A DNA stretch of 12,630 bases from Candidatus Hodarchaeota archaeon (lineage in GTDB: Archaea > Asgardarchaeota > Heimdallarchaeia > Hodarchaeales > Hodarchaeaceae), in assembly GCA_016839785.1 (NCBI GenBank), contig JAEOTQ010000246.1, forward strand, positions 1 through 12,630, in the 5' to 3' direction. Shown here piece by piece: positions 3-12,630 of this stretch (position 1 is the first letter of the stretch; each line of letters starts with the position of its first letter). The position numbers and the translations under genes were made by a program. The notes beneath the pieces were generated by a model. The model saw only the letters and a program-made list of their open reading frames with translations. It ran no database searches and was not told the DNA's origin.

Positions 3-521
3 AAAAATTTAGACCCTTATCCCATAACTATTCCTTACAAGACGGGCGGTCATTTCCTTTCGAAACCAATACTCATCTCTCCGATAGGTGGGGAGACACT
101 TCAGGGCACGGTGACCATTCAGTGGACAGCCTCAGCCGATTCACTAGGACATACGATAGTCTATGATATTGAACTCTCTACTGACGGTGGTACTAGTTGG
201 ACATCATTAATAACTGGGTTAACAACCCCCCATTATGTGTGGGATTCCACGACTATAGCTGATGGCAATAATTATCTTGTGAAAATCAATGCTAGTTGCG
301 TTGAAGGATTATGGCAGGTTGATATTTCTGATAGCACATTCAGTATTATTAACACAGTCACAACTGGAACTCCAACTAAGACTACTACGACAAGTACTCC
401 TACTACTATAGTCACAACAAACCCTCCAACTCTTCCAGTTCCATCATCAGGATTTAGTTTATTATCTGTCTTTGTAATAATTGCTGTAAGTCTAATCATC
501 AAGAAAAAGGATAAGAGATGA
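3..521 (+). CDS. C-terminal part of a cell-surface protein (end of a NosD/beta-helix-type domain, Ig/FN3-like domain, Thr-rich linker, C-terminal TM anchor); 5'-truncated by window
   Basis: The frame of ORF 111..521 is open back to position 3 (KNLDPYPITIPYKTGGHFLSKPILISPIGGETLQGTVTIQW...). NLDPYP matches the NEDPYP/NTDLFP ending of the two beta-helix proteins in this window. SPIGGE...TIQW is typical of small Ig-like domains. Ends with a Thr-rich stretch, SSGF, a hydrophobic helix and KKKDKR. Confidence 0.85.
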   Translation, partial: KNLDPYPITIPYKTGGHFLSKPILISPIGGETLQGTVTIQWTASADSLGHTIVYDIELSTDGGTSWTSLITGLTTPHYVWDSTTIADGNNYLVKINASCVEGLWQVDISDSTFSIINTVTTGTPTKTTTTSTPTTIVTTNPPTLPVPSSGFSLLSVFVIIAVSLIIKKKDKR

Positions 522-584
522 AGAGGAACTGAAATCATTAAGAGCGTGTATCGTTTGAGGATTTAGAATAAAGTAAGAGGTAGA

Positions 585-620
585 CTCCCCCATATCTCTT
601 TTCCCTTCCACCTTTTTTTC
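585..620 (+). terminator. Pyrimidine-rich/oligo-T archaeal-type terminator
   Basis: ctcccccatatctcttttcccttccacctttttttc downstream of the 3..521 gene; a similar tract follows the 608 aa gene (12224-12253). Confidence 0.45.
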
Positions 621-659
621 AATATTATGAGATCTCATTCATTAAAATCTGAAATAAAT

Positions 660-784
660 AAAAAGAACTCCATCCACCCAAATTTAGGTATATTCACTTT
701 AGTAATCGTTTTTCGTCAAACAGTTATCTCTATACTGAGCTTTCGGACTAACTCCTTGTACCTGTTGCGGACGGTCACTTCGGT
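660..784 (-). repeat. tfb 3'-end repeat R1 (orphan last 22 codons + stop at 716-784, 3'UTR and T-tract at 660-715)
   Basis: Minus strand 784->716 reads ACC GAA GTG ACC GTC CGC AAC AGG TAC AAG GAG TTA GTC CGA AAG CTC AGT ATA GAG ATA ACT GTT TGA = [22 protein letters not shown], identical to the tfb C-terminus. 10/69 nt differ from tfb, all synonymous. An in-frame TAG lies immediately upstream. Confidence 0.95.
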
Positions 785-900
785 CTATTATTCCTTTAAA
801 AGACCTATATAAAACAGGAAACAGATAAAAACCCATACTCTATTACGAATGTATTTTCAATATCAATCCTTTTCATATTGTTTCTAAGGAGAGAAAGATA

Positions 901-3900
901 GTGAAGAAAAAGAAATTTTCATTATCATTGCTAGTATTTATACTAATAGTTTTAGTTCAGGTTTTAAATGTTTTAATTTGGACTGAAACTGGAATTACTG
1001 CTCCTCAAACTACAATCTATCCTTCTAGATCATTATTCTCTATTTCTAAGCCAATGACATATATAGAACATGATCCTATCGACATTGATAATAATTCGGC
1101 ATTTGGCCCCTCAGGTTACAATTTTCCTGGAAGTGGCACCATTAACGATCCATATATAATCGGGGGGTATAATATCACCAATTCTGAGAAGAATTTGATA
1201 GATATTTACAACACTACAGTCTATTTCCAGATCAATAACAGTTGGTTAAATGGCTTAAATAGCATGAATTACGGTATCAATCTTGAAAAAGTCACAAACG
1301 GAATAATTACAGACAATGACATAATGAATAGCAGATATGGCATTAGGGTGACATCATCCTCAGAAAATAACACATTTACAGATAATACTGTAACCAACAA
1401 CACTTTTGCAAGTATTTATTTAGGTTCTACAGAAAATAACACTGTTATTGCTAATACTATTTGCTATAATTCTGGTATTGGGGTTTTAATCTCGGGTACC
1501 AACAATATTTTGTTCAACAATATAATCTATAATAACTCAAATGGCATAAAATTAGGTTCCGATAGAAATACTCTGTCAAATAATTCTATATTCAATAACA
1601 GTAACAATGGATTTCACTTGGAAAACTCATACAACAATACTATATTCAATAATACCATCTGTAATAACAAAGACGATGGAATATACTTGAGTCATTCGTC
1701 AAGCAACTCCATTACAAATAATACTATCTGTAACAACAATGACTATGGGATTAATCTTTACTTTTCGTCAAACAATACCATCGCTAATAATACGAGCAGT
1801 AACAATTACAAAGACGGAATATACCTACGTAGTTCGTCTAACAACAACAGCATTGGCAAGAACACTATCAATAACAACGACTACAACGGAATACGCTTGC
1901 AGTCTTCGTATAATAACACCATGATTAATAATGCGATCAACCACAGCTTCAATTCTGGGATTCACCTGTTTTATTCGACTGACAACACTATCGCTAATAA
2001 TAGCATATGTAACAACAACGACTACGGGATAAATCTTTATTCTTCGTCAAACAACACCATATTTTACAACAAAATGACAAATGATAGCCTTTACCTCTCA
2101 GGAAATGTCGTTAAAGACTGTGTACAACGTGAAGTGGTTGGTAACCTAGTTGGTGGAAAACCCCTAGTTTTTTGGCAGAGTATTACTAGCGGAGTAGTTC
2201 CTCTTGGAGCAGGGCAAGTCGTTTTGGTTAATACTACCACAGTTACTATTAGTGGTCAAAACTTATCTAAAACAAGAGTTGGTCTAGTAGTGACCTTCTG
2301 TCAGCAATTGAATATTAGTAATAATATCATCAGCAACAACGAAGACGGAATAATCATGGATTTTTCAAATACAAATACTATTGCTAATAATGAAATCAGG
2401 GACAATAACGACGATGGATTATTCCTGTATTATTCGACGGAGAATACTATTATTAATAATACCATCAATAACAACAATGACAGCGGAATATACCTGTTTT
2501 CTTCAACTATGAACACTCTTACAAATAATGCCATAAGTAACAACAAAGGCATTGGATTGTTCTTGGAGTCTTCAATTAATAACAACATTACCAATAATAC
2601 TGTCAGTAGCAATAAGGACGACGGAATAAACCTAGAGTCTTCACCTAACAACACCATTGCTCAAAATACCATTGAAAACAACTACGACGCCGGAATTTAT
2701 CTATATGATTCAGTTAACAACACTATTACTAATAATACTATCAAAAATAACACCATTTACGGAATGTATCTATCATCTTCAGCCGATAACAACCTCATAA
2801 CCTTTAATACTATCAGAAATAATAATAAACGCGGAATGCGTCTATTAAGATCAGCAAACAACATCATTGCTGATAATGCTATCAGTAAAAACAACGGTGA
2901 CGGAATTTATACGTTTGCTTCAGCCAACAACACCATTAACAATAATATTATCAATAACAACAGCGGTTACGGAATGTACGTGAGTTCTTCATCAAATTAC
3001 ACTATTTCTGAGAATATCATCAGCAATAACAGGGGATACGAAATATTCCTGTATTTTTCAACTAACAATACCATTAGTAATAATACTATTTTTGACAACA
3101 ACTACAAACACGGAATATCCATGAGTCATTCAGCTCACAATAGTATATTATGCAATAATTTGTCAAATGTAGGCCTTTCAATTTCTGGAAATGTAGTTGA
3201 AGAATGTTTACAACATGAAGTGGTTGGTAACCTTGTCAATGGGAAACCATTAATTTTTTGGCAGAATGTTGAAGGTGGAATAGTCCCTCTTGGTGCTGGG
3301 CAAATTGTCTTGGTCAATACAAGTGGTGTTATTATTAGTAGTCAAAACATATCTAATACTTCAGCAGGCGCAGTTGTAACCTTTAGTCATCAGATAAAGA
3401 TCACCAATAATGACATCAACGGAATATTCCTGACTTATTCAGCTAACAACACCATTAGCAATAATTACATCAACAACAACAGATATTACGGAATATACCT
3501 GGGTTCTTCTACAGAGAATACCATCAGTAATAACTACATCAACAACAACCACGATGGAATAGTTCTAAGTTCTTCAGCACACAACACCATTACTGAGAAT
3601 ATAATCAACAATAACGACGAGGATGGAATACGCCTGTTTTTTTCAGATAACAACACGGTTGCCAATAATATCATCAACAACAATGAAAACAACGGAATAA
3701 AACTGTCGCGCTCAGTCGACAACACCATTGGCAATAATTACATCATTAACAATACCAAAAACGGAATAGACCTGTATTATTCAGCTAATAACACCATTAG
3801 TTTTAATGATTTTGTAGGAAACAACCCAGGGGGACCATCTCAAGCATATGATTCAAATAATTTAGGCCAGGATAATATTTTTCACTTCAATTATTGGGAT

Positions 3901-4188
3901 GATTGGACCAACCCTGATAATAATGATGATGGTATTGTTGATAATCCTTATGCTATTTTTGGTGATGAATTTAATGAAGACCCCTATCCAGTGACGGCTC
4001 CTTATGATATCGATGTTAGTTCCCTCACTACAACAACAATCACTACCTCAACAACTAGGGAAACATCAATGACAGAAACAACGACATCTGAAAAAACAAT
4101 GACGATAACAACAAAAGCAGCAGATTTTGGCGTGATCTCAATATTTATAATTGCTTTAATTTTCCTTAACAGAAACCAAAGAACTTGA
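901..4188 (+). CDS. Membrane-anchored right-handed parallel beta-helix (NosD/pectin lyase-like, PbH1 repeats) surface protein, 1095 aa
   Basis: Basic/hydrophobic N-terminal signal, HDPIDI...GSGTINDPYIIG cap, many ~22 aa GIYL.SS.NNTI.NNTI.NN repeats, NYWDDW...DGIVDNPY...DPYP end, Thr-rich linker, TM and basic tail. GTG start preceded by AGGAG (887-891). Confidence 0.92.
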   Translation: MKKKKFSLSLLVFILIVLVQVLNVLIWTETGITAPQTTIYPSRSLFSISKPMTYIEHDPIDIDNNSAFGPSGYNFPGSGTINDPYIIGGYNITNSEKNLIDIYNTTVYFQINNSWLNGLNSMNYGINLEKVTNGIITDNDIMNSRYGIRVTSSSENNTFTDNTVTNNTFASIYLGSTENNTVIANTICYNSGIGVLISGTNNILFNNIIYNNSNGIKLGSDRNTLSNNSIFNNSNNGFHLENSYNNTIFNNTICNNKDDGIYLSHSSSNSITNNTICNNNDYGINLYFSSNNTIANNTSSNNYKDGIYLRSSSNNNSIGKNTINNNDYNGIRLQSSYNNTMINNAINHSFNSGIHLFYSTDNTIANNSICNNNDYGINLYSSSNNTIFYNKMTNDSLYLSGNVVKDCVQREVVGNLVGGKPLVFWQSITSGVVPLGAGQVVLVNTTTVTISGQNLSKTRVGLVVTFCQQLNISNNIISNNEDGIIMDFSNTNTIANNEIRDNNDDGLFLYYSTENTIINNTINNNNDSGIYLFSSTMNTLTNNAISNNKGIGLFLESSINNNITNNTVSSNKDDGINLESSPNNTIAQNTIENNYDAGIYLYDSVNNTITNNTIKNNTIYGMYLSSSADNNLITFNTIRNNNKRGMRLLRSANNIIADNAISKNNGDGIYTFASANNTINNNIINNNSGYGMYVSSSSNYTISENIISNNRGYEIFLYFSTNNTISNNTIFDNNYKHGISMSHSAHNSILCNNLSNVGLSISGNVVEECLQHEVVGNLVNGKPLIFWQNVEGGIVPLGAGQIVLVNTSGVIISSQNISNTSAGAVVTFSHQIKITNNDINGIFLTYSANNTISNNYINNNRYYGIYLGSSTENTISNNYINNNHDGIVLSSSAHNTITENIINNNDEDGIRLFFSDNNTVANNIINNNENNGIKLSRSVDNTIGNNYIINNTKNGIDLYYSANNTISFNDFVGNNPGGPSQAYDSNNLGQDNIFHFNYWDDWTNPDNNDDGIVDNPYAIFGDEFNEDPYPVTAPYDIDVSSLTTTTITTSTTRETSMTETTTSEKTMTITTKAADFGVISIFIIALIFLNRNQRT

Positions 4189-4376
4189 CTCAAACGTCTA
4201 AAAGAGAAAGAGCTCCACTTAAAGTACTATCTCTTCCTTATTCGGTTTTTTCGGCTTTTAAATGCCATTAGATTAAAATTCGCTTTCTTCTCTATTCCAA
4301 AAAATCCTTCTTCATTTTGTTGTCTTAATTTCTCAAATATTGTGAATGAAGTTAGAAATTTCTCCATTTATAATAG

Positions 4377-4504
4377 AAAAAAGAAAACTCTATCCACCCG
4401 AATTTTTATGTATTCACACTAATAAGCGTATTTTCTCAAACAGTGATCTCTATGCTGAGCTTTCGGACTAATTCCTTGTACCGATTGCGTACGGTGACTT
4501 CAGT
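4377..4504 (-). repeat. tfb 3'-end repeat R2 (coding part 4436-4504)
   Basis: Minus strand ACT GAA GTC ACC GTA CGC AAT CGG TAC AAG GAA TTA GTC CGA AAG CTC AGC ATA GAG ATC ACT GTT TGA gives the same 22 aa; 11/69 nt differ from tfb, all synonymous. The UTR shares aaaaaagaaaactc..tccacc..aattt with R3. Confidence 0.95.
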
Positions 4505-5102
4505 ATTGAAAACATCAATAAATCCATCACAAAGAAAACAAGAATAATAAAAAAAAGAATAGGGGGAGAGTCAACCAAGGGAAAGCTACTTCATTAATTC
4601 GAGTGTCTTTTTGAAAGTGAAATGAATGTCGATTAGAGGTTCAGCTCCAAAATTAACCAACAATCCAAGCGGATAACTCATAATTTGTTCCCAAAGTGCT
4701 TCATGGGAATCCGCGTTTACAATAGCAAGACCCCCACCGTCAATGGTCTGATAGACACAATCAATGGAACCATCTGCGAGCTTTGTTTCAAACCATTTAA
4801 TAGTAGCTTGGATTAACTCTCGATAATTTTCTGGGGCTTGAACTCCCTCACGGGGTTCTGCCACAACAAGGAATTTCAATCTTTTTCACCTCTCCTGTGA
4901 TATTCCTACCTAGGATAAAAAAGTTGGTTTTCAGAGGGCAAGAAAGGATAAATTCCGAGAAATAGACTTATTAGAAAAAAGAAAACTCCCTCCACCCAAA
5001 TTTAGGTGTATTCACTTTAGTAATCGTTTTTCGTCAAACAGTTATCTCTATACTGAGCTTTCGGACTAATTCCTTGTATCTGTTGCGTACGGTCACCTCG
5101 GT
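4505..5102. mobile_element. Putative inserted unit B (598 bp): tail R3 + 97 aa gene
   Basis: Bounded by equivalent junctions of R2 and R3; single small gene with its own RBS and downstream T-tract. Mobility is inferred. Confidence 0.6.
4586..4879 (-). CDS. Small alpha/beta protein, muconolactone delta-isomerase-like / DUF3303-like
   Basis: MKFLV start and GGGLAIVNADSHEALWEQIMSYPL motif resemble this family. TTG start preceded by a strong GGAGAGGTGA Shine-Dalgarno (4887-4896, minus strand); oligo-T tract downstream (4549-4556). Confidence 0.7.
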   Translation of the reverse strand: MKFLVVAEPREGVQAPENYRELIQATIKWFETKLADGSIDCVYQTIDGGGLAIVNADSHEALWEQIMSYPLGLLVNFGAEPLIDIHFTFKKTLELMK

Positions 5103-5105
5103 GAC
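4975..5105 (-). repeat. tfb 3'-end repeat R3 (coding part 5034-5105, [23 protein letters not shown])
   Basis: Minus strand GTC ACC GAG GTG ACC GTA CGC AAC AGA TAC AAG GAA TTA GTC CGA AAG CTC AGT ATA GAG ATA ACT GTT TGA; 11/69 nt differ from tfb, all synonymous. UTR 4984-5033 is 48/50 identical to R1 666-715. Confidence 0.95.
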
Positions 5106-5146
5106 AGTAAGTTCAAACATTTATATATACAGAATAGCAAGCAATG

Positions 5147-7408
5147 CTAGTAACGTTGATTTTTACGCGAAGGAAATAAGCTGATTATTAGTACAGATAG
5201 AACTATTAGAAATTCAAAAGCACTGGAAGTTTGTGATGTAGAACTATGAGGAGTTAAAGGATCACAGCTGGATTCAACTTCTTCTCCATCGCTTTCTCCA
5301 TCATTATCACTATCCCAATTGTTAGGATCTGTCCCTATCAAGTATTCGTTGAAGTTAGAAAGACCATCGCTATCTTTGTCTTGTTTAGCATCCAGTGGAT
5401 CCGAAGAATTAAGTCCCATATGATGTTCCCAACCATCAGGCATACCATCATCGTCAGTATCGGAGTCAGTAGCGTTTAATCCCAATTGAAATTCCTGTAG
5501 ATTTGTGAGATCGTCTCCATCAGAATCATGCGACGCATCGTTGGCACTAGAAGGTTTAAGTCCCATATGATGTTCCCAACCATCAGGCATACCATCATCG
5601 TCAGTATCGGAGTCAGTAGCGTTTAATCCCAATTGATATTCCTGCAGATTTGTGAGATCGTCTCCATCAGAATCCAGAGTAGCATCGAGGGGATTAGTGG
5701 CATTCAAATCCATTTGATATTCCCACTTATTCAACATACCGTCAAGATCTTTATCTTCCGTTGCATCTTGGGGATTAGTTATGTTTAACCCCATTTCATA
5801 TTCCCAACCATCAGGTATGGTATCTCCATCACTGTCAGGATTTGTAACATTAAAATCATTGCAAATTTCAAAGAAATCTGTCAATCCATCATAATCTGAG
5901 TCTATCCATGAGTTATGAAACAAACAAAGGATTGCATCACCTGGACCTTTGAGTTTCCAAGATTCATCCGTTGTTGGAAAAAACTCAGAGTAGGTTTCCC
6001 CGAATAAGACTATGTTCTCTTTCACATTAATACTATAGCCTCTTTCAAACTTTTCTCCTCCAATAAATGTACTCCATTGCAAAGTTCCAGAGTTAGAAAA
6101 TGAAGAAATGAATATATCCCCTTGGCCAACTAATGTTGAACTGTATGCATTTAGGGTAGGAAAATCAATTGATTGAGTGGTTCCAGCAATTACAACATTT
6201 CCTTGAATATCAATATCCATCGCAGAAACTCCATCAGTTGAGTTGCCTCCTATTAATGTACTCCAAAGTAGTGTCTGGTTGGATGCAAATTTAGAAAGAA
6301 AGGTATCAGATGAACTTCCTGCATTCAGAGCATTATCAAAAGCGTTTAATGTAGGAAAATCAGGAGAATAGGTTCTCCCAGCAATAAAAATATTGTTAAA
6401 ACGATCAATTGCTACAGTATTACACGTATCAGATTTGTTTCCACCAAAATAAGAACTCCAGATTAAGGAACTAGTGGGAGCGAATTTTATGATGACACCA
6501 TCAGAGGAATCATATTCATCATCAAATGCATTTAGGGTTGGAAAATTAAACGACCAAGTTGATCCAACGACTACGACATTGTTTTCAGAATCATGATCTA
6601 TTCCCGACCCACTATCGTCATTATAGCCACCCACAATAGTACTCCATAATATAGAACCGCTAGAAGAAAATTTTGAAATAAAAATATCAGATCCTCCAAT
6701 GTCACCTCCTGGTTTAGAATAATGAGCGTTTATAGTAGGGAAATCTGTGGATTCAGTTTGACCAGTGAGAATGATGTTGTCCAAGTTATCGATCGTAACA
6801 TCTCCTACTAACTCTTTATCTGATCCTCCAATGTATGTACTCCATATTAACAAACCAGCTGGGCTAAATTTTGAAATGAAAATATCGTAATCCGAATCTC
6901 CGTTGTGAGTATAATCATATGCATTTAAGGTAGGAAAATCTTTTGACTGAGTTCCCCCAATTGCTATAATATTATCATCACTATCAACTGTTACAATCTT
7001 ACCATCTTCATTCAAACTTCCACCTATATATGTACTCCACTGCAATGAACCATTAGGATAAAATTTTGATAAAAAAGCGTCCATATCACCATTGAGAGTA
7101 TTATCATATGAATTGAGGGTTGGGAAATCATTAGACCAAGTTGTACCTATTCCTATTATATTTCCGTGACTATCGATAGTAACATCCTTACCAGAATCAC
7201 TACCGCTTCCACCGAAGAAAGTACTGAAAGTGAGTAAATCTTGGAAGATCTCATTTTTCTTCATCGAATATAATAAAAAATTAACATCATTACAGAAAGT
7301 ATTCTCTTTGGAATGACAAGTAGTTATGCTAAAACTACACACTAGGATTGAACTTAATAGGATAAATTCTATAAGATAGACCATTTTTTGATATCGAAAT
7401 TGGATCAT
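5147..7408 (-). CDS. Surface protein with SBBP-type beta-propeller repeats, thrombospondin type-3-like Ca-binding repeats and C-terminal TM anchor, 753 aa
   Basis: About 7 repeats of WSTYIGGS..D.G..I.ID...NI...G.T.S.DFPTLNA.D....G..D.FISKF; DSDGD/DTDDDGMPDGWE repeats; Ser/Thr linker, SAFEF, hydrophobic helix, RKNQRY. Confidence 0.9.
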   Translation of the reverse strand: MIQFRYQKMVYLIEFILLSSILVCSFSITTCHSKENTFCNDVNFLLYSMKKNEIFQDLLTFSTFFGGSGSDSGKDVTIDSHGNIIGIGTTWSNDFPTLNSYDNTLNGDMDAFLSKFYPNGSLQWSTYIGGSLNEDGKIVTVDSDDNIIAIGGTQSKDFPTLNAYDYTHNGDSDYDIFISKFSPAGLLIWSTYIGGSDKELVGDVTIDNLDNIILTGQTESTDFPTINAHYSKPGGDIGGSDIFISKFSSSGSILWSTIVGGYNDDSGSGIDHDSENNVVVVGSTWSFNFPTLNAFDDEYDSSDGVIIKFAPTSSLIWSSYFGGNKSDTCNTVAIDRFNNIFIAGRTYSPDFPTLNAFDNALNAGSSSDTFLSKFASNQTLLWSTLIGGNSTDGVSAMDIDIQGNVVIAGTTQSIDFPTLNAYSSTLVGQGDIFISSFSNSGTLQWSTFIGGEKFERGYSINVKENIVLFGETYSEFFPTTDESWKLKGPGDAILCLFHNSWIDSDYDGLTDFFEICNDFNVTNPDSDGDTIPDGWEYEMGLNITNPQDATEDKDLDGMLNKWEYQMDLNATNPLDATLDSDGDDLTNLQEYQLGLNATDSDTDDDGMPDGWEHHMGLKPSSANDASHDSDGDDLTNLQEFQLGLNATDSDTDDDGMPDGWEHHMGLNSSDPLDAKQDKDSDGLSNFNEYLIGTDPNNWDSDNDGESDGEEVESSCDPLTPHSSTSQTSSAFEFLIVLSVLIISLFPSRKNQRY
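5409..5674. repeat. Intragenic near-perfect duplication (119 bp x2, period 147 bp = 49 aa)
   Basis: 5409-5527 vs 5556-5674 are identical at 117/119 positions. Confidence 0.9.
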
Positions 7409-7467
7409 TTCTAAACCTCATTTTCTCAATTATCTCCCTTTCCGTGTTCTGTGTTAAGGTGCAATTA

Positions 7468-9030
7468 TCACTTCTTCCGTCTAAAGTAGATTAAGATTCC
7501 AAAAGTTGGAATCAATAGAAAAAGACTCCAAAATGAAGATAAATTATCAGTGCGAGAAAAGCTGGATTGACTAGTAGTTTCTGTGGTTGCTGTTGATTTT
7601 GTAAAATAAGATGAATATTCGCTAGTATGATCATGACTCTGACTATAGGAACTTCGAGAAGTATGAGTGATAGTACTAGTCGTAGGATAAGAAGAATCAG
7701 TTATAGTACAATTGAATAAGGGGAAAAGATCTGTATTGTTTGCCTGGCCATCTATTAGATAAGGCTGATCAACAAATCCATCTCCATCAACATCTGGTTT
7801 ACACCAATCACTCCACTGATTCTGAGTGAAATTATTCGAACTCACTCCTTTATAGTCATCATATGCTTGTGATGATTCAAATGGACTATTATTAAGAAAT
7901 TTATTCCATTGGATTTGGTTTGCAACAGCGCTTTCAAGATATAAGCCATAATAGCCGTTATCAATAAATGTATTATTCTCAATAGCGCCGAAATGAGATG
8001 ATTTAAGATGTAATCCGTTTTGAGTATTTGTCAAAAGGGAGTTTTGTAGGATGATATTTCGATGTCCAGACGTGATAATTATCCCTATCTCGTTGTTATT
8101 AACCGTATTATTGTGGATGAAACTGTCACTCAAGCCACAGGAAATCCCATGTTGAGAATTATTATGAATAAGATTGTGTGAGATGTTAATATAATCTCCC
8201 CAGATTTGGATACCAGCTCCACCAAATTCACGAATATTATCGAAAATATGGTTATATGATATAGTAGAATTAAATAAATCACCCCAGATTCCACATCCAT
8301 ACCCTGAAATTTGATTTTCGACAATTGTTGCATATGGGACATCGTTCAATTGAACACCATAACCATAATTATCAGTACAATGTATTGTATTATTGATCAT
8401 CTTGATATACTCAGGATAATCAACAATATTAAGGGATTTGAAGTATAGGGCATTTAGTGACACCCCAGTCTTACTCGTGGTAATTGTATTATTGGCTATC
8501 AACACATAATCAGACCGGTCTATATTTATTCTACCATCAATTAATTCATTCGATATAAGAGAACCATTCCCTCCGCATGTCAAGTAGACTCCTGATTCAA
8601 ACAAAGTGCAATTGAAAATGGTAAAATGGCTAGTATTAGTGAAGCCAATTCCTCCAGTTATCAATAAACAGTTAATTATCTTGAAATGAACAGATGTGTA
8701 TCTAATACCAATTGCGGACCCGCTACTAGTTTGAATTCTTAAGTTTTCGATGATGTATGGGTTTGAGGCAGTCCCATTACCAGACCAACCTTCCAAATAT
8801 GCTGTGTCATTAAAAGCGGTATCACTTGAAATGGAAATAGGATCATGTAGATCGTAATGTGTTGTCATTAATTCAAAAACTGGACCACTAAACGCTTCTT
8901 TCTTAGTTATTTCATTATTATTATAATCAAAGATTGCACCAAAATTTTTGTTTAAATTCCAAAAAAGTAAACAAATCACTAAAATCAGAATTGTAAAAAT
9001 CGATGCTCTCCTTTCCATCCTTGTTCTCAC
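7468..9030 (-). CDS. Membrane-anchored NosD/pectin lyase-like beta-helix surface protein, 520 aa
   Basis: HDPISI...WSGNGTASNPYIIENL cap, beta-helix repeats, NQWSDW..PDVDGDGFVDQPY.IDG...DLFPL end, Ser/Thr linker, TM and RRKK. Same architecture as 901..4188. Confidence 0.9.
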   Translation of the reverse strand: MRTRMERRASIFTILILVICLLFWNLNKNFGAIFDYNNNEITKKEAFSGPVFELMTTHYDLHDPISISSDTAFNDTAYLEGWSGNGTASNPYIIENLRIQTSSGSAIGIRYTSVHFKIINCLLITGGIGFTNTSHFTIFNCTLFESGVYLTCGGNGSLISNELIDGRINIDRSDYVLIANNTITTSKTGVSLNALYFKSLNIVDYPEYIKMINNTIHCTDNYGYGVQLNDVPYATIVENQISGYGCGIWGDLFNSTISYNHIFDNIREFGGAGIQIWGDYINISHNLIHNNSQHGISCGLSDSFIHNNTVNNNEIGIIITSGHRNIILQNSLLTNTQNGLHLKSSHFGAIENNTFIDNGYYGLYLESAVANQIQWNKFLNNSPFESSQAYDDYKGVSSNNFTQNQWSDWCKPDVDGDGFVDQPYLIDGQANNTDLFPLFNCTITDSSYPTTSTITHTSRSSYSQSHDHTSEYSSYFTKSTATTETTSQSSFSRTDNLSSFWSLFLLIPTFGILIYFRRKK

Positions 9031-9114
9031 CCAAAGTGGATGCTTTTAGAATTTTAACGGGATTTAAAAATCTTTCATTTTTAGATTCATGGTGATGTTC
9101 AGAATTTAATAGCT

Positions 9115-9495
9115 ATGCAAAACAGAATTGTATCTTTGCCTGACAGTCCATTGACACATTCAGGCTCCGTCCTCATTGACTCACCACGGATCGGGCCACC
9201 ACATGAGCAAGTCGTCCCCAGGGACGTGAAAACACACACAGGGGAAACTGAACCAGAAAACTGGAATGTCTTACGCAAAGATTCTCCAGAACAAGAAGGA
9301 GTGACAACAATGTCATCCAATACTACTCCCCCTTACAAGGGGTTTAAATGGGAGTTCCCCCGAATGAACTACATTCGGGAGAATCCCGAAAAACTTCTCA
9401 AGACTAATATCTTGAGATACCTCTGCATCGCTGCAGAGCTCGATATTATTGCTAATATCGAGAAATACCTCGTTGAGGTATTTGAGACCCTTTGA
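9115..9495 (+). CDS. Hypothetical protein whose N-terminal half is homologous to the N-terminus of the 608 aa LAGLIDADG-like protein; possible remnant
   Basis: SPRIGPPHEQVVPRDVKTHTG vs SPRIGPDREQSYPREVKTTEG; exact 19 bp match ctcaccacggatcgggcca at 9180-9198 and 10585-10603; followed by a pyrimidine tract (about 9530-9553). Confidence 0.55.
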   Translation: MQNRIVSLPDSPLTHSGSVLIDSPRIGPPHEQVVPRDVKTHTGETEPENWNVLRKDSPEQEGVTTMSSNTTPPYKGFKWEFPRMNYIRENPEKLLKTNILRYLCIAAELDIIANIEKYLVEVFETL

Positions 9496-9587
9496 CTGGA
9501 GAGTCTGTGTGGCAACAGCTTTTCTCCAATCATTCCCCTTCTCTTTTTCTTTTAACCACCTAAAAAAATAAAACACTTACTTAGAAG

Positions 9588-10085
9588 TTAAGTACTCCCT
9601 TTAATCGTTTCTTTTACATCCTTTGTTGGAAAATTCTCCATATTCCCTTCCGTAATCCTGTGAATCCAAGGCATAATTGCCATGATCTCACCAGTGGGAC
9701 TTTTAACTAGCATAAATGGAAGACGTCGGTCAATAGCACTCGAATACAAATCTTTGTATTCTTTATACTGATCGTTTGAGACAAGAAAAGCATCAAGTTG
9801 TGTAGCTAATTCTAAGATGAAACGATCACTATCGGTGTTTGGAGGAGTCTCAAGAACCTCTCGTTTAGAAATTGATGCTTTTAAGCTCTGAGGGTCATCA
9901 ATACGATACTTCAACATTGATGAGACTACAGGAAAAACTGATCCGAGTTGTTGAAGTCTTTGGATGACAACCAATAGACCTTGAAGTTCCGCGTTCCGCG
10001 CCTTCTTACGAAAAAAAGCTACATTATTGCCATCGATAACGAAATGCATGTCGAACACTTGGATTGAAGTTGTAGATTTCACCAA
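9588..10085 (-). CDS. NYN/Zc3h12a-like PIN-fold ribonuclease
   Basis: FVIDGNNVA, TPPNTDSDRFILELA and LVSNDQYKEY motifs supply the conserved acidic residues of the family. The true start may be ATG at 10049. Confidence 0.85.
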   Translation of the reverse strand: MVKSTTSIQVFDMHFVIDGNNVAFFRKKARNAELQGLLVVIQRLQQLGSVFPVVSSMLKYRIDDPQSLKASISKREVLETPPNTDSDRFILELATQLDAFLVSNDQYKEYKDLYSSAIDRRLPFMLVKSPTGEIMAIMPWIHRITEGNMENFPTKDVKETIKGST

Positions 10086-10110
10086 ATATCGTCAGTCGAA
10101 GTTTCACTCA

Positions 10111-10120
10111 TTATATATAC
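10111..10120 (-). promoter_or_regulatory. Candidate TATA box for the NYN gene
   Basis: GTATATATAA on the minus strand about 26-35 nt upstream of the 10085 start. Confidence 0.35.
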
Positions 10121-10370
10121 AAATTCATTCATAAACTCCCATAAATTAATGGAATTGCTTCTCGAGTATAAAAGGGACACAGGGAATCAAAGGTAGAATT
10201 TCAAATCCAGAAATTCAGGTGTTTGATCTTTAGTGAGAGCGTTCTAAACAGAAGGCCACAACTTATCGAAGATTGAAACGGAAGTCTAAGTAAGAAGACT
10301 CTCCACACCGCCCCCTTACTTGATAGTGGTAGGGGTAACAAATAAAAAAACTATAAGCCTTCTCATTACG

Positions 10371-10379
10371 AGGAGGTGA
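10371..10379 (+). promoter_or_regulatory. Shine-Dalgarno site AGGAGGTGA of the 608 aa gene
   Basis: Consensus archaeal SD 8 nt upstream of ATG 10388. Confidence 0.75.
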
Positions 10380-10387
10380 CATAAAAT

Positions 10388-12214
10388 ATGGCAGTTGAAG
10401 TGCTCCAAGAGACACATTGTCTTGATACACTCATTGAAATCCATCAGGTGGATGTAGCTGAGTGTGTAGAGCACTCAGCTGCCCTACTTCCCGAAAGAGG
10501 TTTCTCAGAAGCCTCTCGCACTCTCTTAACGGAGTGCCCCCAAATGGGAAACGCGCAACGACGCATCCCGTTTGGGCTCACAGGCTCACCACGGATCGGG
10601 CCAGATCGTGAGCAAAGCTATCCAAGGGAAGTAAAAACCACTGAAGGGAAGAAGTTAGTAGACGACAACCGTGTGACTCCAGAGCACCTCAACTGGTTTG
10701 AGGTGTTACAAGTGAGAAAAAATGAAAAAAAACCCGATCAGGAGCTGCCCCCACTCCCAGATCGAGCGATTAAGGGCCTCAAGAGGCCTTGGGTGTCTCC
10801 CAACGGTGAACCGTTTCATACGGTGAGTCTGTGGGAGTTTGAAAATCTATACGTCTTATTGGGTGAAAAAGATTGGAAAAGCCTTTCAATGTTCTTGAAA
10901 AGCATGAACCTTTCGGTGTTGTCCCGTCAGCTTAAGATAGGACAAAAAACCCTCAGATGTATCCGCGACAATCGTAACCAATCGATAGTGGTGCCTAACC
11001 TCTGCAAACTCTGTGAAGAAGCAGAGTTAGACCTCGAATCAGTCGAAAGAATGATAAGAGGAGTACGATTCAATAAATCGGGAGAAATTGAAAAAATCCT
11101 TTTCCCCTTCGTCATGGACATCTACGCTTGGCGGGCTTTGTGTCATATTGCTGGTGATGGTAATATCCATAAACGGAAATTCCCTGATCTTCGATGGATC
11201 CAAGCTCGAGAGAACCAAGTTCCAATGCGTGATCTTCTCAAACGCCTGAGTCGGCCAACAGGTGGCGAGAGTATCTACATCAATTATCCCAAGGCGTTAT
11301 CCTACGCTATCATGGGAACCATTCCTGGAATGACGTTGAGTGACCTCCGATCCCCAAAATTTATACAATTTGTCATCGATCTTCCACCCACATATCGTGA
11401 TTGGAAGATACAATTCCTTGCTGCATTCATCATTGATGATGGTTGTGTGAGTGGTGATATTTCCTTCAATCAGAAGGACAGAACCATTCTTGAAAAAGTA
11501 ATGAGTTTATGTGACCAATTAGGATATGATCATTCACCATATCCACCAAAAAGACAACAGCGTGATGGAATGCATGATTTTCAACTTCGATCAAAAGGTT
11601 ACCGAAATTTTTACAATGATCTCAATGACCTTCTTTCACGTTATGCTAAAGATTCCATCTTAAGTCTCTGGCATAAGTACCCCAAATTGCAAAATCTCGT
11701 TGATAGAATCTCTGATAAACGTCTGGAGGAGAATCAACGATCTATAGTTGTCTATGAAACGATCCTCACAATATTAGGAGATCATCAAATTCGAAGTAGT
11801 AAACAACTTCGTGAACATCCCAAACTACAACCACTTGTTGAGAATTACTCCTCTAAGATTTTCAGAGATCGTTTGCGATGGTTGATAACTCATGACCTCA
11901 TTCAAGAAGTCAAAAAAACCAACGGTGGTTCCTATCGACCAAAACGCTTGATCATTCCTTCCTCCCATGATCTCGAAACTCTAATTCAGGAGTTTCATAC
12001 CTTATATGGCGATCGTGCTCATTCTCAATCCTATAAACGTCAATTTGTCACTGTAGAGATGGCCAACAAAGCCAAGGCACGTCTAATCTCTCGTGGTGTT
12101 AAACCAAACCCTACGAATACCGCTCGTGAAGGAGGTTTCTCTAGGAAGCTTTTCTATGAACGAGCTGATCTACGTGCCTTATTTGAGGATGATATTGAGG
12201 AATTTGAGGAATAG
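10388..12214 (+). CDS. Free-standing double-motif LAGLIDADG (homing endonuclease-like) protein with HTH-like domains, 608 aa
   Basis: Motif 1 AWRALCHIAGDG (11126-11161) and motif 2 FLAAFIIDDG (11414-11443) are about 94 aa apart and each is followed by strand-like segments (LRWIQ; ISFNQKDRTILEKV..LGY). Upstream XRE-like HTH (LSVLSRQLKIGQKTL...NLCKLC); downstream wHTH-like segment and terminal HTH-like segment (PTNTAREGGFSRKLFY). No intein splice motifs seen. Assigned by eye. Confidence 0.7.
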   Translation: MAVEVLQETHCLDTLIEIHQVDVAECVEHSAALLPERGFSEASRTLLTECPQMGNAQRRIPFGLTGSPRIGPDREQSYPREVKTTEGKKLVDDNRVTPEHLNWFEVLQVRKNEKKPDQELPPLPDRAIKGLKRPWVSPNGEPFHTVSLWEFENLYVLLGEKDWKSLSMFLKSMNLSVLSRQLKIGQKTLRCIRDNRNQSIVVPNLCKLCEEAELDLESVERMIRGVRFNKSGEIEKILFPFVMDIYAWRALCHIAGDGNIHKRKFPDLRWIQARENQVPMRDLLKRLSRPTGGESIYINYPKALSYAIMGTIPGMTLSDLRSPKFIQFVIDLPPTYRDWKIQFLAAFIIDDGCVSGDISFNQKDRTILEKVMSLCDQLGYDHSPYPPKRQQRDGMHDFQLRSKGYRNFYNDLNDLLSRYAKDSILSLWHKYPKLQNLVDRISDKRLEENQRSIVVYETILTILGDHQIRSSKQLREHPKLQPLVENYSSKIFRDRLRWLITHDLIQEVKKTNGGSYRPKRLIIPSSHDLETLIQEFHTLYGDRAHSQSYKRQFVTVEMANKAKARLISRGVKPNPTNTAREGGFSRKLFYERADLRALFEDDIEEFEE

Positions 12215-12223
12215 AAGGAAAAT

Positions 12224-12253
12224 CTCCCCTTTTTTCCCTTCCCCTCTTTTTTT
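12224..12253 (+). terminator. Pyrimidine-rich/oligo-T terminator
   Basis: ctccccttttttcccttcccctcttttttt just after the stop at 12214. Confidence 0.55.
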
Positions 12254-12291
12254 GACAGGACTTTGTATAGATCTAAATTGCTTCTTTTAAT

Positions 12292-12423
12292 AAAAAAACT
12301 TGATAACTCCCTCACTCCGAATTTATATTTACTATATGCGTCTGATGTATTTTGTTAAACAGTGATCTCTATACTAAGCTTTCTGACCAATTCCTTGTAC
12401 CTGTTTCTCACGGTGACTTCGGT
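12292..12423 (-). repeat. tfb 3'-end repeat R0: the currently functional tail + UTR + T7 tract
   Basis: ACC GAA GTC ACC GTG AGA AAC AGG TAC AAG GAA TTG GTC AGA AAG CTT AGT ATA GAG ATC ACT GTT TAA. The UTR retains aactccctc..ccgaattt seen in R1-R3; T-tract at 12292-12298 (minus strand). Confidence 0.9.
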
Positions 12424-12630
12424 AACGTGAGCCACTTCTGAGATTTCTCGTTGTGTCCGCCGTTCTCCATTGATTATTCCTGAGATATAGATTGCCGCTG
12501 CTGCTAACCCGGTCGGATCTTTCCCTGCTGTCAGTCCTGCCGCTTTCGCCCGTTTTAGTATTGATGCTGCTTTCCGTTGGCATACTCCTGACAGGCGTAG
12601 TTCTGTCCCGAACCGCACTAGATAATCGAT
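12355..12630 (-). CDS. tfb: Transcription initiation factor IIB (archaeal TFB), C-terminal cyclin repeat; 5'-truncated by window
   Basis: Frame open to the window edge: [14 protein letters not shown]...[18 protein letters not shown]...[25 protein letters not shown], the canonical TFIIB second repeat with its BRE-binding HTH. Confidence 0.97.

Follow-up and report, generated by a model that had tools for sequence, protein, structure and literature searches.

Cassette arrays behind tfb in a Hodarchaeota genus are linked to a family of predicted LAGLIDADG endonuclease homologues

Integrase-borne islands at the 3' ends of tRNA and protein genes restore the end of the gene they enter, the displaced copy marks the far end of the island, and tandem arrays occur. 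Integrons collect single-gene cassettes that lack a mobility gene of their own. In the intronless homing of phages (T4 seg and mob), an endonuclease gene lies beside the gene that is cut, and repair of the break co-converts the flanks; the flanks are replaced cleanly, without orphan ends or arrays, and the enzymes are mostly of the GIY-YIG or HNH type. Here we analysed a 12,630-nt contig of a Candidatus Hodarchaeota archaeon (GenBank assembly GCA_016839785.1, contig JAEOTQ010000246.1; this whole stretch is hereafter the window), in which four copies of the end of tfb, the gene of a core transcription factor, delimit cassettes of unrelated cargo genes, and in which a free-standing gene for a predicted LAGLIDADG endonuclease homologue lies beside tfb.

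A comparable arrangement is known from fungal mitochondria as the mORF. The passages of Beaudet et al. (2013; PMC3630166) that deal with it describe mORFs in atp6, atp9, cox2 and nad3 of Glomus and cite the atp6 mORF of Allomyces macrogynus: a LAGLIDADG or GIY-YIG open reading frame (ORF) lies in the 3' part of a conserved gene, which has a foreign C-terminus, and the native C-terminus is found downstream. According to the same passages, the two copies differ largely synonymously, and the native one groups with close relatives while the inserted one does not (PMC3630166). The tfb locus likewise has an endonuclease gene beside a replacement gene end, with the native end displaced. Unlike the mORFs, it lies on an archaeal chromosome and concerns a core transcription factor; its endonuclease gene is separate from and convergent to the target, and the encoded protein has additional helix-turn-helix (HTH) and winged-helix parts; kilobases of cargo are present, up to four or five generations of units are stacked, and sister clades of the endonuclease family replace 5' ends. 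With phage intronless homing the locus shares the free-standing endonuclease gene beside its target, but it differs in its orphan gene ends and cassette arrays. Direct repeats carrying the 3' end of the target, the attL/attR feature of integrase islands, are present at tfb; in contrast to integrase islands and integrons, there was no recombinase match among the scanned array ORFs, no attI, attC or non-coding core, and the cassettes have mixed orientation. Since these defining features are absent, we class the array neither as an integron nor as an integrase island.

In Asgard archaea, the element HeimM2 of Ca. Heimdallarchaeum carries a homing-endonuclease-like gene suggested to have been co-opted for site-specific insertion (Wu et al. 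2022; PMC8813620). It is comparable to the tfb arrays in carrying such a gene; HeimM2 lies between 16S rRNA and tRNA genes, and the passages that deal with it report neither a duplicated gene end nor an array, nor do they mention tfb (PMC8813620). The terms TFB and LAGLIDADG do not occur in the main texts, supplements apart, of PMC8813620 and PMC11529989, nor does TFIIB in the latter. Neither insertions at tfb nor Asgard LAGLIDADG genes that stand alone turned up in our literature searches, again supplements apart, in line with the initial annotation of this DNA, which knew of no described system of this kind at tfb. As we best read these comparisons, gene-end replacement linked to a homing endonuclease is known, whereas its archaeal occurrence and the multi-unit arrays would be new.

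The window is the entire contig C49 of the 4.04-Mb metagenome-assembled genome (MAG) G000, which has 248 contigs, 84.5% completeness and 3.4% contamination. A repeat search identified four direct 128-nt copies on the same strand (657-784, 4377-4504, 4975-5102 and 12296-12423), each made up of the last 22 tfb codons and ~60 nt of 3' untranslated region (UTR). Together with tblastn it confirmed the four tails reported in the initial annotation (stop codons at 716, 4436, 5034 and 12355) as well as the unit lengths given there, the start-to-start spacings being 3720, 598 and 7321 nt. From the contig end inwards, the parts of the locus that concern tfb and the endonuclease gene are:

12355..12630, minus strand: 3' part of tfb, last 91 codons and stop, truncated by the contig end (PF00382 TFIIB, E = 5.7e-22)
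12296..12423, minus strand: active tail T0, linked to the intact endonuclease gene (repeat search, alignment)
12215..12295, no strand assigned: spacer from the stop of the LAGLIDADG gene to the end of the tfb UTR (homologue in G051)
10388..12214, plus strand: predicted LAGLIDADG endonuclease homologue, 608 aa, convergent to tfb, core from ~10739
4975..5102, minus strand: orphan tail C (T1), 22-23 codons, stop and UTR, 93% identical to tail A
4377..4504, minus strand: orphan tail B (T2) (repeat search, alignment, tblastn)
657..784, minus strand: orphan tail A (T3) (repeat search, alignment, tblastn)
545..656, no strand assigned: spacer and decayed endonuclease gene end beyond tail A (similarity to loci L035 and L036)

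The alignment showed that homology opens in every copy at the (V)T-E codons, the V/T codons of VTEVT to which it had been traced initially, and ends ~60 nt past the stop at a T-tract. Relative to the copy at 657-784, identity is 81% for 4377-4504, 93% for 4975-5102 and 70% for 12296-12423. Tails A and C are closer to each other than either is to B. The copies matched with BLAST E-values of 7e-18 to 7e-62, which excludes a chance origin, and in a whole-genome BLAST the 128-nt repeat had four matches in G000, all on C49. At the three orphan sites the 22-residue C-terminal peptide of tfb was 100% identical in tblastn. An apparent match of window 4681-4439 to tfb residues 228-322 (37%) was discarded as a spurious extension of the 22 identical residues.

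The identical peptides are encoded by clearly different sequences. Among the window tails, 15 of the 66 coding positions are variable, corresponding to at least 16 substitutions, and 100% of these are synonymous; the expected silent fraction of random single changes is 23.7% (0.237), giving P ~1e-10 for such an outcome. The active tail T0 differs from each orphan at 9-10 of the 66 coding nucleotides, synonymously throughout, and is the outlier, sharing no more than 70% identity with each of the other tails when coding part and UTR are taken together. The window orphans group with orphans of genome G051 (77-85% identical; the sequences are too short for sound phylogeny). Older orphans in other genomes do show amino-acid replacements and stops. 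Divergence restricted to synonymous positions means that the tails diverged under selection as functional gene ends before they were displaced; these are imported tails that evolved under coding selection. Judging by their sequences, the window tails must have diverged in separate lineages and have been joined recently.

The stretch 545-656 beyond tail A consists of spacer and ~10 decayed terminal codons of another copy of the endonuclease gene. Its part 545-624 is 93.75% identical to L035 4023-4102 in G051, which is a C-terminal remnant of an endonuclease gene, and also matches L035 7640-7716 (88%) and L036 2490-2551 (90%). The corresponding gene end and spacer at the tfb side of the window (11973-12252) match L035 7440-7714 at 78%. 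Because of the endonuclease remnant, the array may extend past the contig start, and tail A is not simply the ancestral tfb tail.

The same layout recurs within one Hodarchaeota genus, for which we used a set of 22 genomes including G000: at least eight of them (G000, G051, G052, G053, G054, G060, G061 and G064) have orphan tails behind tfb or in clusters on one strand. A back-translated ten-residue tail pattern matched 12 of the 22 genomes (reversed control: 0), with several same-strand matches on a single contig in G000, G052, G053 and G061. The degenerate pattern had seven matches in G000, four on C49 and three on contig C137 (reversed control: 0), and both clusters are downstream of a tfb gene; tails are clustered there and not scattered over the genome, as the initial annotation had expected. 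By tblastn, which covered the window and 18 loci of relatives, orphans were detected behind tfb on C137 (2) and in G052 (2-3), G061 (3), G053 (4) and G064 (1), and orphan clusters lie on broken contigs of G051, G059 and G060. A further, decayed orphan was recognised in G054 by tblastx.

Comparison with an empty site demonstrated that the arrays are insertions. In G049 (locus L029), tfb has no orphan tail in the 10 kb examined, and the genes on both sides of it are syntenic with those of C137, G052, G053 and G054 (tblastx). In these four, the ancestral downstream genes resume directly past the last orphan tail; the arrays were therefore inserted between tfb and its ancestral neighbours. The closest pair is G049 and G054, which are ~90% identical throughout, G054 having an extra 1-kb unit with VapB and a PIN-domain VapC. 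On either side of this unit is a direct repeat that takes in the final tfb codons and ~78 nt of sequence beyond the stop. In this pair neither repeat copy is clearly the native one. Gene content between tails varies among relatives, as the initial annotation had assumed, and its view that each unit is an insertion at one tfb site, with a working tail and a displaced one, is borne out by the synteny with G049, the common breakpoint and the synonymous divergence.

The second tfb locus of the MAG, with a tail array of its own, spans G000:C137:15449-23439 (L005 3449-11439); most genomes of the genus have a single such locus. Its tfb is complete and shares 98% amino-acid but 78.5% nucleotide identity with that of C49, and two decayed orphan tails lie 6 and 7 kb downstream. 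Since the tails and cassettes of C49 resemble those of G051, C49 may derive from a co-binned relative rather than represent a paralogous locus.

The breakpoint in tfb is common to the arrays. Thirteen well-kept orphans from six genomes start within ~6 nt of one another, at the codons GTY, ACN and GAR, and older orphans are eroded at this 5' end. The 3' UTR inside the repeat is, by comparison, entirely different between lineages. Fold z-scores of the four UTR types were -0.2, +0.8, -2.7 and -4.8: in one type a hairpin spans the stop codon (z -2.7), another forms two strong hairpins (z -4.8), and no significant fold was obtained for the UTR types of the window. A conserved att-like UTR structure was rejected, the UTRs being lineage-specific and without a common fold. 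As the coding sequence alone is common to all lineages, the pattern fits an enzyme that reads a conserved coding site and not an att core in the UTR. ARAGORN found no tRNA or tmRNA within the window that could have been the target, and a search of the window and the C137 locus against Rfam (E<=1) returned a single chance-level match, outside the array. Two features of the tails were seen in addition. At L029 7585-7625, and in tails of the same UTR type (one lineage), the final tfb codons and the start of the UTR make up an inverted repeat centred on the stop, GAGATTACCGTC TAG ACGGTATCTCC, followed by a T-tract (fold z -2.7). Three orphans (L005 11439, L022 4581 and L024 6970) have TGA at the same Arg codon (tail codon 6), which reads CGA or AGA in working tails, and a fourth has TAG there; in those orphans, the 16 codons after codon 6 are far better conserved than the 6 before it.

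The gene convergent to tfb in the window ends 140 nt from the tfb stop on the opposite strand and encodes 608 aa. Its family is the only one that recurs at tail-array sites. Intact long-type homologues are convergent to tfb in 7 of 7 cases, at 0.1-1.6 kb from the tfb stop: in the window, on C137, in G053 and G050, and on 3 of 3 metagenome contigs. Six C-terminal remnants lie beside tails, one each in G065 and G064, three in G051, and window 545-656.

The predicted domain order is an XRE-type HTH, two LAGLIDADG domains, a winged helix and a C-terminal HTH. Pfam family PF14528 (LAGLIDADG_3) scored above its cut-off in two relatives, and XRE-type HTH and winged-helix matches were obtained at the protein ends. 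The AlphaFold (AF2) model of the 491-aa core reached a pLDDT of 94.3 and a pTM of 0.82, and the best PDB matches in Foldseek were PI-PkoII and I-DmoI (TM score 0.53-0.62, target-normalised) and PI-PfuI, with a probability of 1.00; sequence identity to solved LAGLIDADG structures is 12-16%. An alignment of 54 sequences has just three invariant columns; in core numbering they are G139, D140 and D233, which correspond to residues 256-257 and 350 in the full ORF. In an alignment of eight sequences G256-D257-G258 and D350-D351 are invariant (GDG and DDG motifs). Both Asp motifs come after predicted helices of the core (128-138 and 217-234), so that each LAGLIDADG helix has an acidic residue where it ends C-terminally, and we take the invariant Asp residues to be the metal-binding positions of the LAGLIDADG class. 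With I-DmoI, PI-PfuI and PI-PkoII the protein thus shares the two LAGLIDADG domains in one chain, seen in the model and in Foldseek, and the acidic residue ending each helix; unlike them, it lies outside an intron or intein and has XRE HTH and winged-helix/HTH ends. Presence/absence polymorphism and decayed copies, the marks of a homing cycle, were found as well. On the strength of the structural model, the 608-aa protein is a predicted LAGLIDADG endonuclease homologue.

This family is small and previously unnamed, with 82 representatives at E<=1e-3 and 19 at E<=1e-30 among 1.84 billion proteins. Within the GTDB genomes it was present in 9 of the 21 other genomes of the genus and in none of the 61 genomes from elsewhere in the class. 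A profile of the 54 sequences gave only weak partial matches outside the genus in 400 Asgard genomes, within open frames of 243-1736 aa; those in the longest frames might, at a guess, be inteins or other LAGLIDADG domains. A virus or plasmid origin was considered as well, and a profile of eight sequences found no relative among viral contigs.

Two observations concern the N-terminal extension of the window protein. A GC-rich 75-nt stretch in it (10577-10650) has a second copy at 9172-9246; the copies are 74.7% identical (15/25 aa, E = 2e-6) and are the sole two in the genome. The region 10480-10740 upstream of the endonuclease core (51% GC) has a fold z-score of -4.2 in the sense direction and -1.2 on the other strand. 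In a metagenome homologue the frame of the extension is open and 52% identical over 86 residues in the same frame. Such an open and conserved frame leads us to read this GC-rich region as an N-terminal extension, though an RNA leader may still account for it.

Members of the same family occur beside duplicated ends of two other genes. A short-type clade (~410-430 aa) is located at the 5' end of the gene for a ~380-aa membrane protein, without a Pfam family match, in G049, G067 and G065; the three loci are L028 7870-10893, L012 3-2204 and L027 9308-12091. In two of the three, G049 and G067, an orphan head comprising the first 60-80 codons lies across the endonuclease gene, with the break just ahead of the conserved NTDVDDAITS codons; orphan and active head are 36/81 identical (E = 1e-13). 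The two active heads linked to a homing endonuclease gene (HEG) share a signature (FSE..., WIQYH-EEE-GRI) that is absent from the orphan heads, and the latter are more like the G065 head. It thus appears that a replacement gene end comes with the element itself. The case of G058 is weaker: here (L037 10137-13607) a homologue, in the orientation of the target, lies between a 22-codon orphan head (10/22 identical, E = 3e-6) and an intact MetE-like gene (Meth_synt_2). The family is linked exclusively with duplicated gene ends, at these three genes, and three targets, each with a duplicated end and its own protein clade, are hard to explain by a passenger role. An endonuclease ORF beside a replacement gene end, with the native end beyond it, is present in the window, on C137, in G053 and at the membrane-protein heads. 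That the inserted end is the foreign one is indicated by the outlier position of T0 and by the shared head signature, while the G049/G054 pair and a mismatch between spacers and tails (see below) are neutral or point the other way; all these sequences are short.

We lean, without great confidence, towards a free-standing LAGLIDADG homing endonuclease as the driver of the repeated insertion of tails and cargo at tfb. The endonuclease would cut a HEG-less tfb allele at or near the V-T-E codons, 22 codons ahead of the stop, within the conserved coding sequence of the last helix of the second TFIIB repeat. The break would then be repaired from a HEG-bearing allele, with the tfb body as the left homology arm and the right side closed either by homology with an old, orphan tail of the donor (~125 nt of tail and UTR) or by end-joining. 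What repair would copy in is a replacement tail that has a terminator of its own, followed by the convergent HEG and the cargo, so that tfb would stay intact and the old tail of the recipient would be pushed downstream as an orphan. Repeated invasions, together with the decay of older HEGs, would leave a tail-delimited cassette array. The model would account for the fixed 5' boundary with its few nucleotides of play, for the foreign, recoded active tail, for the decay series of endonuclease genes and for the stacked units. DNA cleavage, the cut position, the repair route and the escape of the host allele from self-cutting are the steps that we infer.

Several observations weigh against this explanation. 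The whole dataset consists of MAGs and short contigs. The match of the window protein to PF14528 (E = 8e-4, 20 bits) stays below the curated cut-off of 22.5, and the LAGLIDADG fold is not confined to nucleases: its non-catalytic relative WhiA was found at Foldseek rank 50. Units B and C of the window and the entire arrays of G052 and G061 are without a detectable HEG remnant. In G054 the active repeat copy is no less like the empty allele of G049 than its orphan counterpart. One HEG-side spacer (94% identical) is joined to tail A in the window and to a ~60%-identical tail in G051, which means that tail and HEG are not always co-inherited; either tails were exchanged at a later time or HEG insertion takes place downstream of the tail. 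The active tail of the HEG-bearing G053 shows few wobble differences from the empty-site tail of G049, which leaves self-immunity without explanation. Finally, cassettes end neatly past complete genes, unlike what random copying and joining would produce.

Some of these points suit a tyrosine recombinase encoded elsewhere, which would integrate circular tail-bearing cassettes (attP) at the tfb tail (attB), with the LAGLIDADG protein as a passenger or regulator. We regard this as unlikely, though still a live rival. Every unit is bordered by direct repeats of ~125 nt with a constant 5' boundary, the single-gene cassettes are tidy and have no mobility gene, and one HEG-side spacer with different tails would fit hybrid att sites; moreover, G000 holds three PF00589 tyrosine recombinase genes, on C174, C143 and C113 and none on the array contig. 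The serine recombinase family PF00239 had no match in this 84.5% complete genome. However, we detected no integrase, transposase or resolvase family among the 77 ORFs scanned with Pfam, out of 114 ORFs of >=80 aa taken from 13 array regions; the other 37 were mostly ORFs of G059, G060 and G064 distant from tails, small overlapping ORFs and endonuclease homologues. The UTR part of the repeat differs wholly between lineages, so there is no conserved core outside the coding sequence, and such a recombinase leaves unexplained why one endonuclease family is found at three genes with duplicated ends. No circular junction joining a unit end to a tail was seen among the joints of contigs from three marine-sediment metagenome runs of one study; these contigs, short and with a depth of 3-6, are weak evidence on this. 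The initial annotation had assumed an integrase-type element with an enzyme acting in trans and had overlooked the 608-aa ORF beside tfb; the scanned array ORFs lend no support to recombinase involvement. Its comparison with integrons holds as a functional analogy and fails for the parts, as IntI, attI and attC are absent. Its strict chronology of units is insecure too, since metagenome contigs point to a variant without the most distal unit, tails A and C are closer to each other than to B, and tail-tail recombination could reorder or delete units.

Local break repair that copies the resident tail from the sister chromosome and captures unrelated DNA, with the endonuclease at most supplying the break, is likewise a live rival but appears to us more doubtful still; in a variant of it, islands are exchanged by plain illegitimate recombination and the LAGLIDADG protein is a DNA-binding regulator. 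It is consistent with the lineage-specific UTR types, orphans sharing the type of the resident tfb, with the 87% identity of active and orphan tail in G064, with the near-equal likeness of the G054 copies to the empty allele, and with the unrelated cargo, which includes ordinary chromosomal gene types. In contrast, the differences between the tails in the window are purely synonymous (at least 16 of 16 substitutions) and require evolution as gene ends in separate lineages, the HEG-linked ends look foreign in the window and at the membrane-protein gene, and the catalytic Asp residues are invariant. An assembly or binning artefact from collapsed repeats or chimeric MAG contigs seems very improbable. 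The contig stops inside tfb, the two tfb loci of G000 (98% aa, 78% nt) suggest co-binned relatives, and related contigs frequently break at tails; yet the layout recurs with different sequences and cargo in at least eight independent genome assemblies and three metagenome contigs, some arrays lie within contigs of 57-143 kb with conserved flanks, the copies on one contig differ at 7-30% of positions, and contigs of the three runs, which contain 67-71% of the sampled words, cover 28-29 of the 30 window bins.

Joints in the contigs of these three runs fit a polymorphic, recombining array, and they count as hints only, because 545-656 is repeated in relatives and the joint sides measure 27-45 nt. 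The joints from 609 to 12355 (runs X2 and X3; sides of 45 and 36 nt) and from 619 to 12446 (X1 and X2; side of 27 nt) link tfb to sequence past tail A, skipping 11.7-11.8 kb, at 90% likeness and a depth of 3-16. They were rejected as proof of an empty site and may come from related strains with another arrangement. The joint from 619 to 4429 (X2 and X3) suggests a variant without the 3720-nt unit, the joint from 12192 to 565 fits another strain in which an intact endonuclease gene is followed by an A-type spacer, and a loose end at 4504 shows a B-like tail following another tfb-like body.

If a homing endonuclease is at work here, break-and-copy at an essential-gene end would be a third route, beside integrases and transposases, to the variable islands of archaea, and a mechanism of fungal mitochondria would extend to the closest prokaryotic relatives of eukaryotes. 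A bolder proposal, which we put forward tentatively and hold to be rather doubtful, is that the tfb tail serves as a gene-capture platform run by the homing endonuclease, an integron analogue without an integrase. Orphan tails would then be right-hand homology arms, and terminators for the preceding cargo gene, rather than debris; any tail-flanked gene could be moved in trans by the endonuclease; and essential-gene ends, namely that of tfb and the heads of the two other genes, would be safe, universally conserved landing pads at which Asgard archaea accumulate surface genes and genes of defence type. The clades of the LAGLIDADG family appear to recognise three conserved coding sequences, and these natural specificities may be of use for meganucleases. 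Gene flow among Hodarchaeota lineages is recorded in the arrays as well. Since tfb can have a foreign end of 22 codons, marker-gene phylogenies call for caution, and assemblies tend to break at the repeats.

The remaining genes of the window are mostly cargo and lie on both strands:

9588..10085, minus strand: NYN/Zc3h12a-like ribonuclease, 165 aa, cargo (PF11977, E = 1.1e-14)
9115..9495, plus strand: 126-aa ORF with the second copy of the 75-nt GC-rich stretch (at 9172-9246)
7468..9030, minus strand: beta-helix/NosD-repeat secreted protein, 520 aa, with a C-terminal membrane anchor (PF05048 and PF13229, E ~3e-20)
5147..7408, minus strand: SBBP beta-propeller-repeat surface protein, 753 aa (PF06739, E = 4.9e-30)
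4586..4879, minus strand: DUF3303-like gene, 97 aa, cargo of the 598-nt unit (PF11746, E = 0.0023)
901..4188, plus strand: beta-helix/NosD-repeat surface protein, 1095 aa, cargo of the 3720-nt unit (PF13229, E = 1.6e-158)
3..521, plus strand: C-terminal segment of a surface protein with Thr-rich linker, membrane anchor and basic tail, truncated by the contig start

The 126-aa ORF is possibly a 5' remnant of an older endonuclease gene. The ORF at 3..521 had no Pfam family match and may be part of a further unit. Large secreted repeat proteins make up most of the window cargo (901-4188, 5147-7408, 7468-9030 and 3-521); at the C-terminus of each, a linker rich in Thr and Ser is followed by a hydrophobic helix and a short basic tail, a layout that looks like an archaeal cell-surface anchoring signal. 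The gene of the 1095-aa protein contains internal repeats of 69 nt, and the gene of the 753-aa protein stops 44 nt ahead of orphan tail C. Across the arrays, Pfam identified PIN/VapBC pairs, NYN RNase, RmuC, an RNase III-like dsRBD protein, a KaiC-like ATPase with an XPD-like helicase, a P-type ATPase, a beta-lactamase-fold protein, DUF3303 and large beta-helix or beta-propeller surface proteins.

The DUF3303 cassette at 4566-4952 is 88.6% identical in nucleotide sequence to G051 L035 665-1049, where the gene matches PF11746 with E = 2e-4 and belongs to a larger unit with two extra ORFs. A cassette shared in different unit contexts indicates that cassettes are reshuffled between arrays. In C137 and G053, an ORF of 176 or 195 aa, of no known family, lies between tfb and the endonuclease gene (L005 4590-5120 and L024 17252-17839). 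The two are 47% identical (E = 2e-51) and have the orientation of tfb; the window has none. Behind the endonuclease gene, the same two loci carry a pair of genes for a KaiC-like ATPase and an XPD/DinG-like helicase (L005 7603-10250 and L024 12187-14818), perhaps a module with an accessory or defence role in this lineage of elements.

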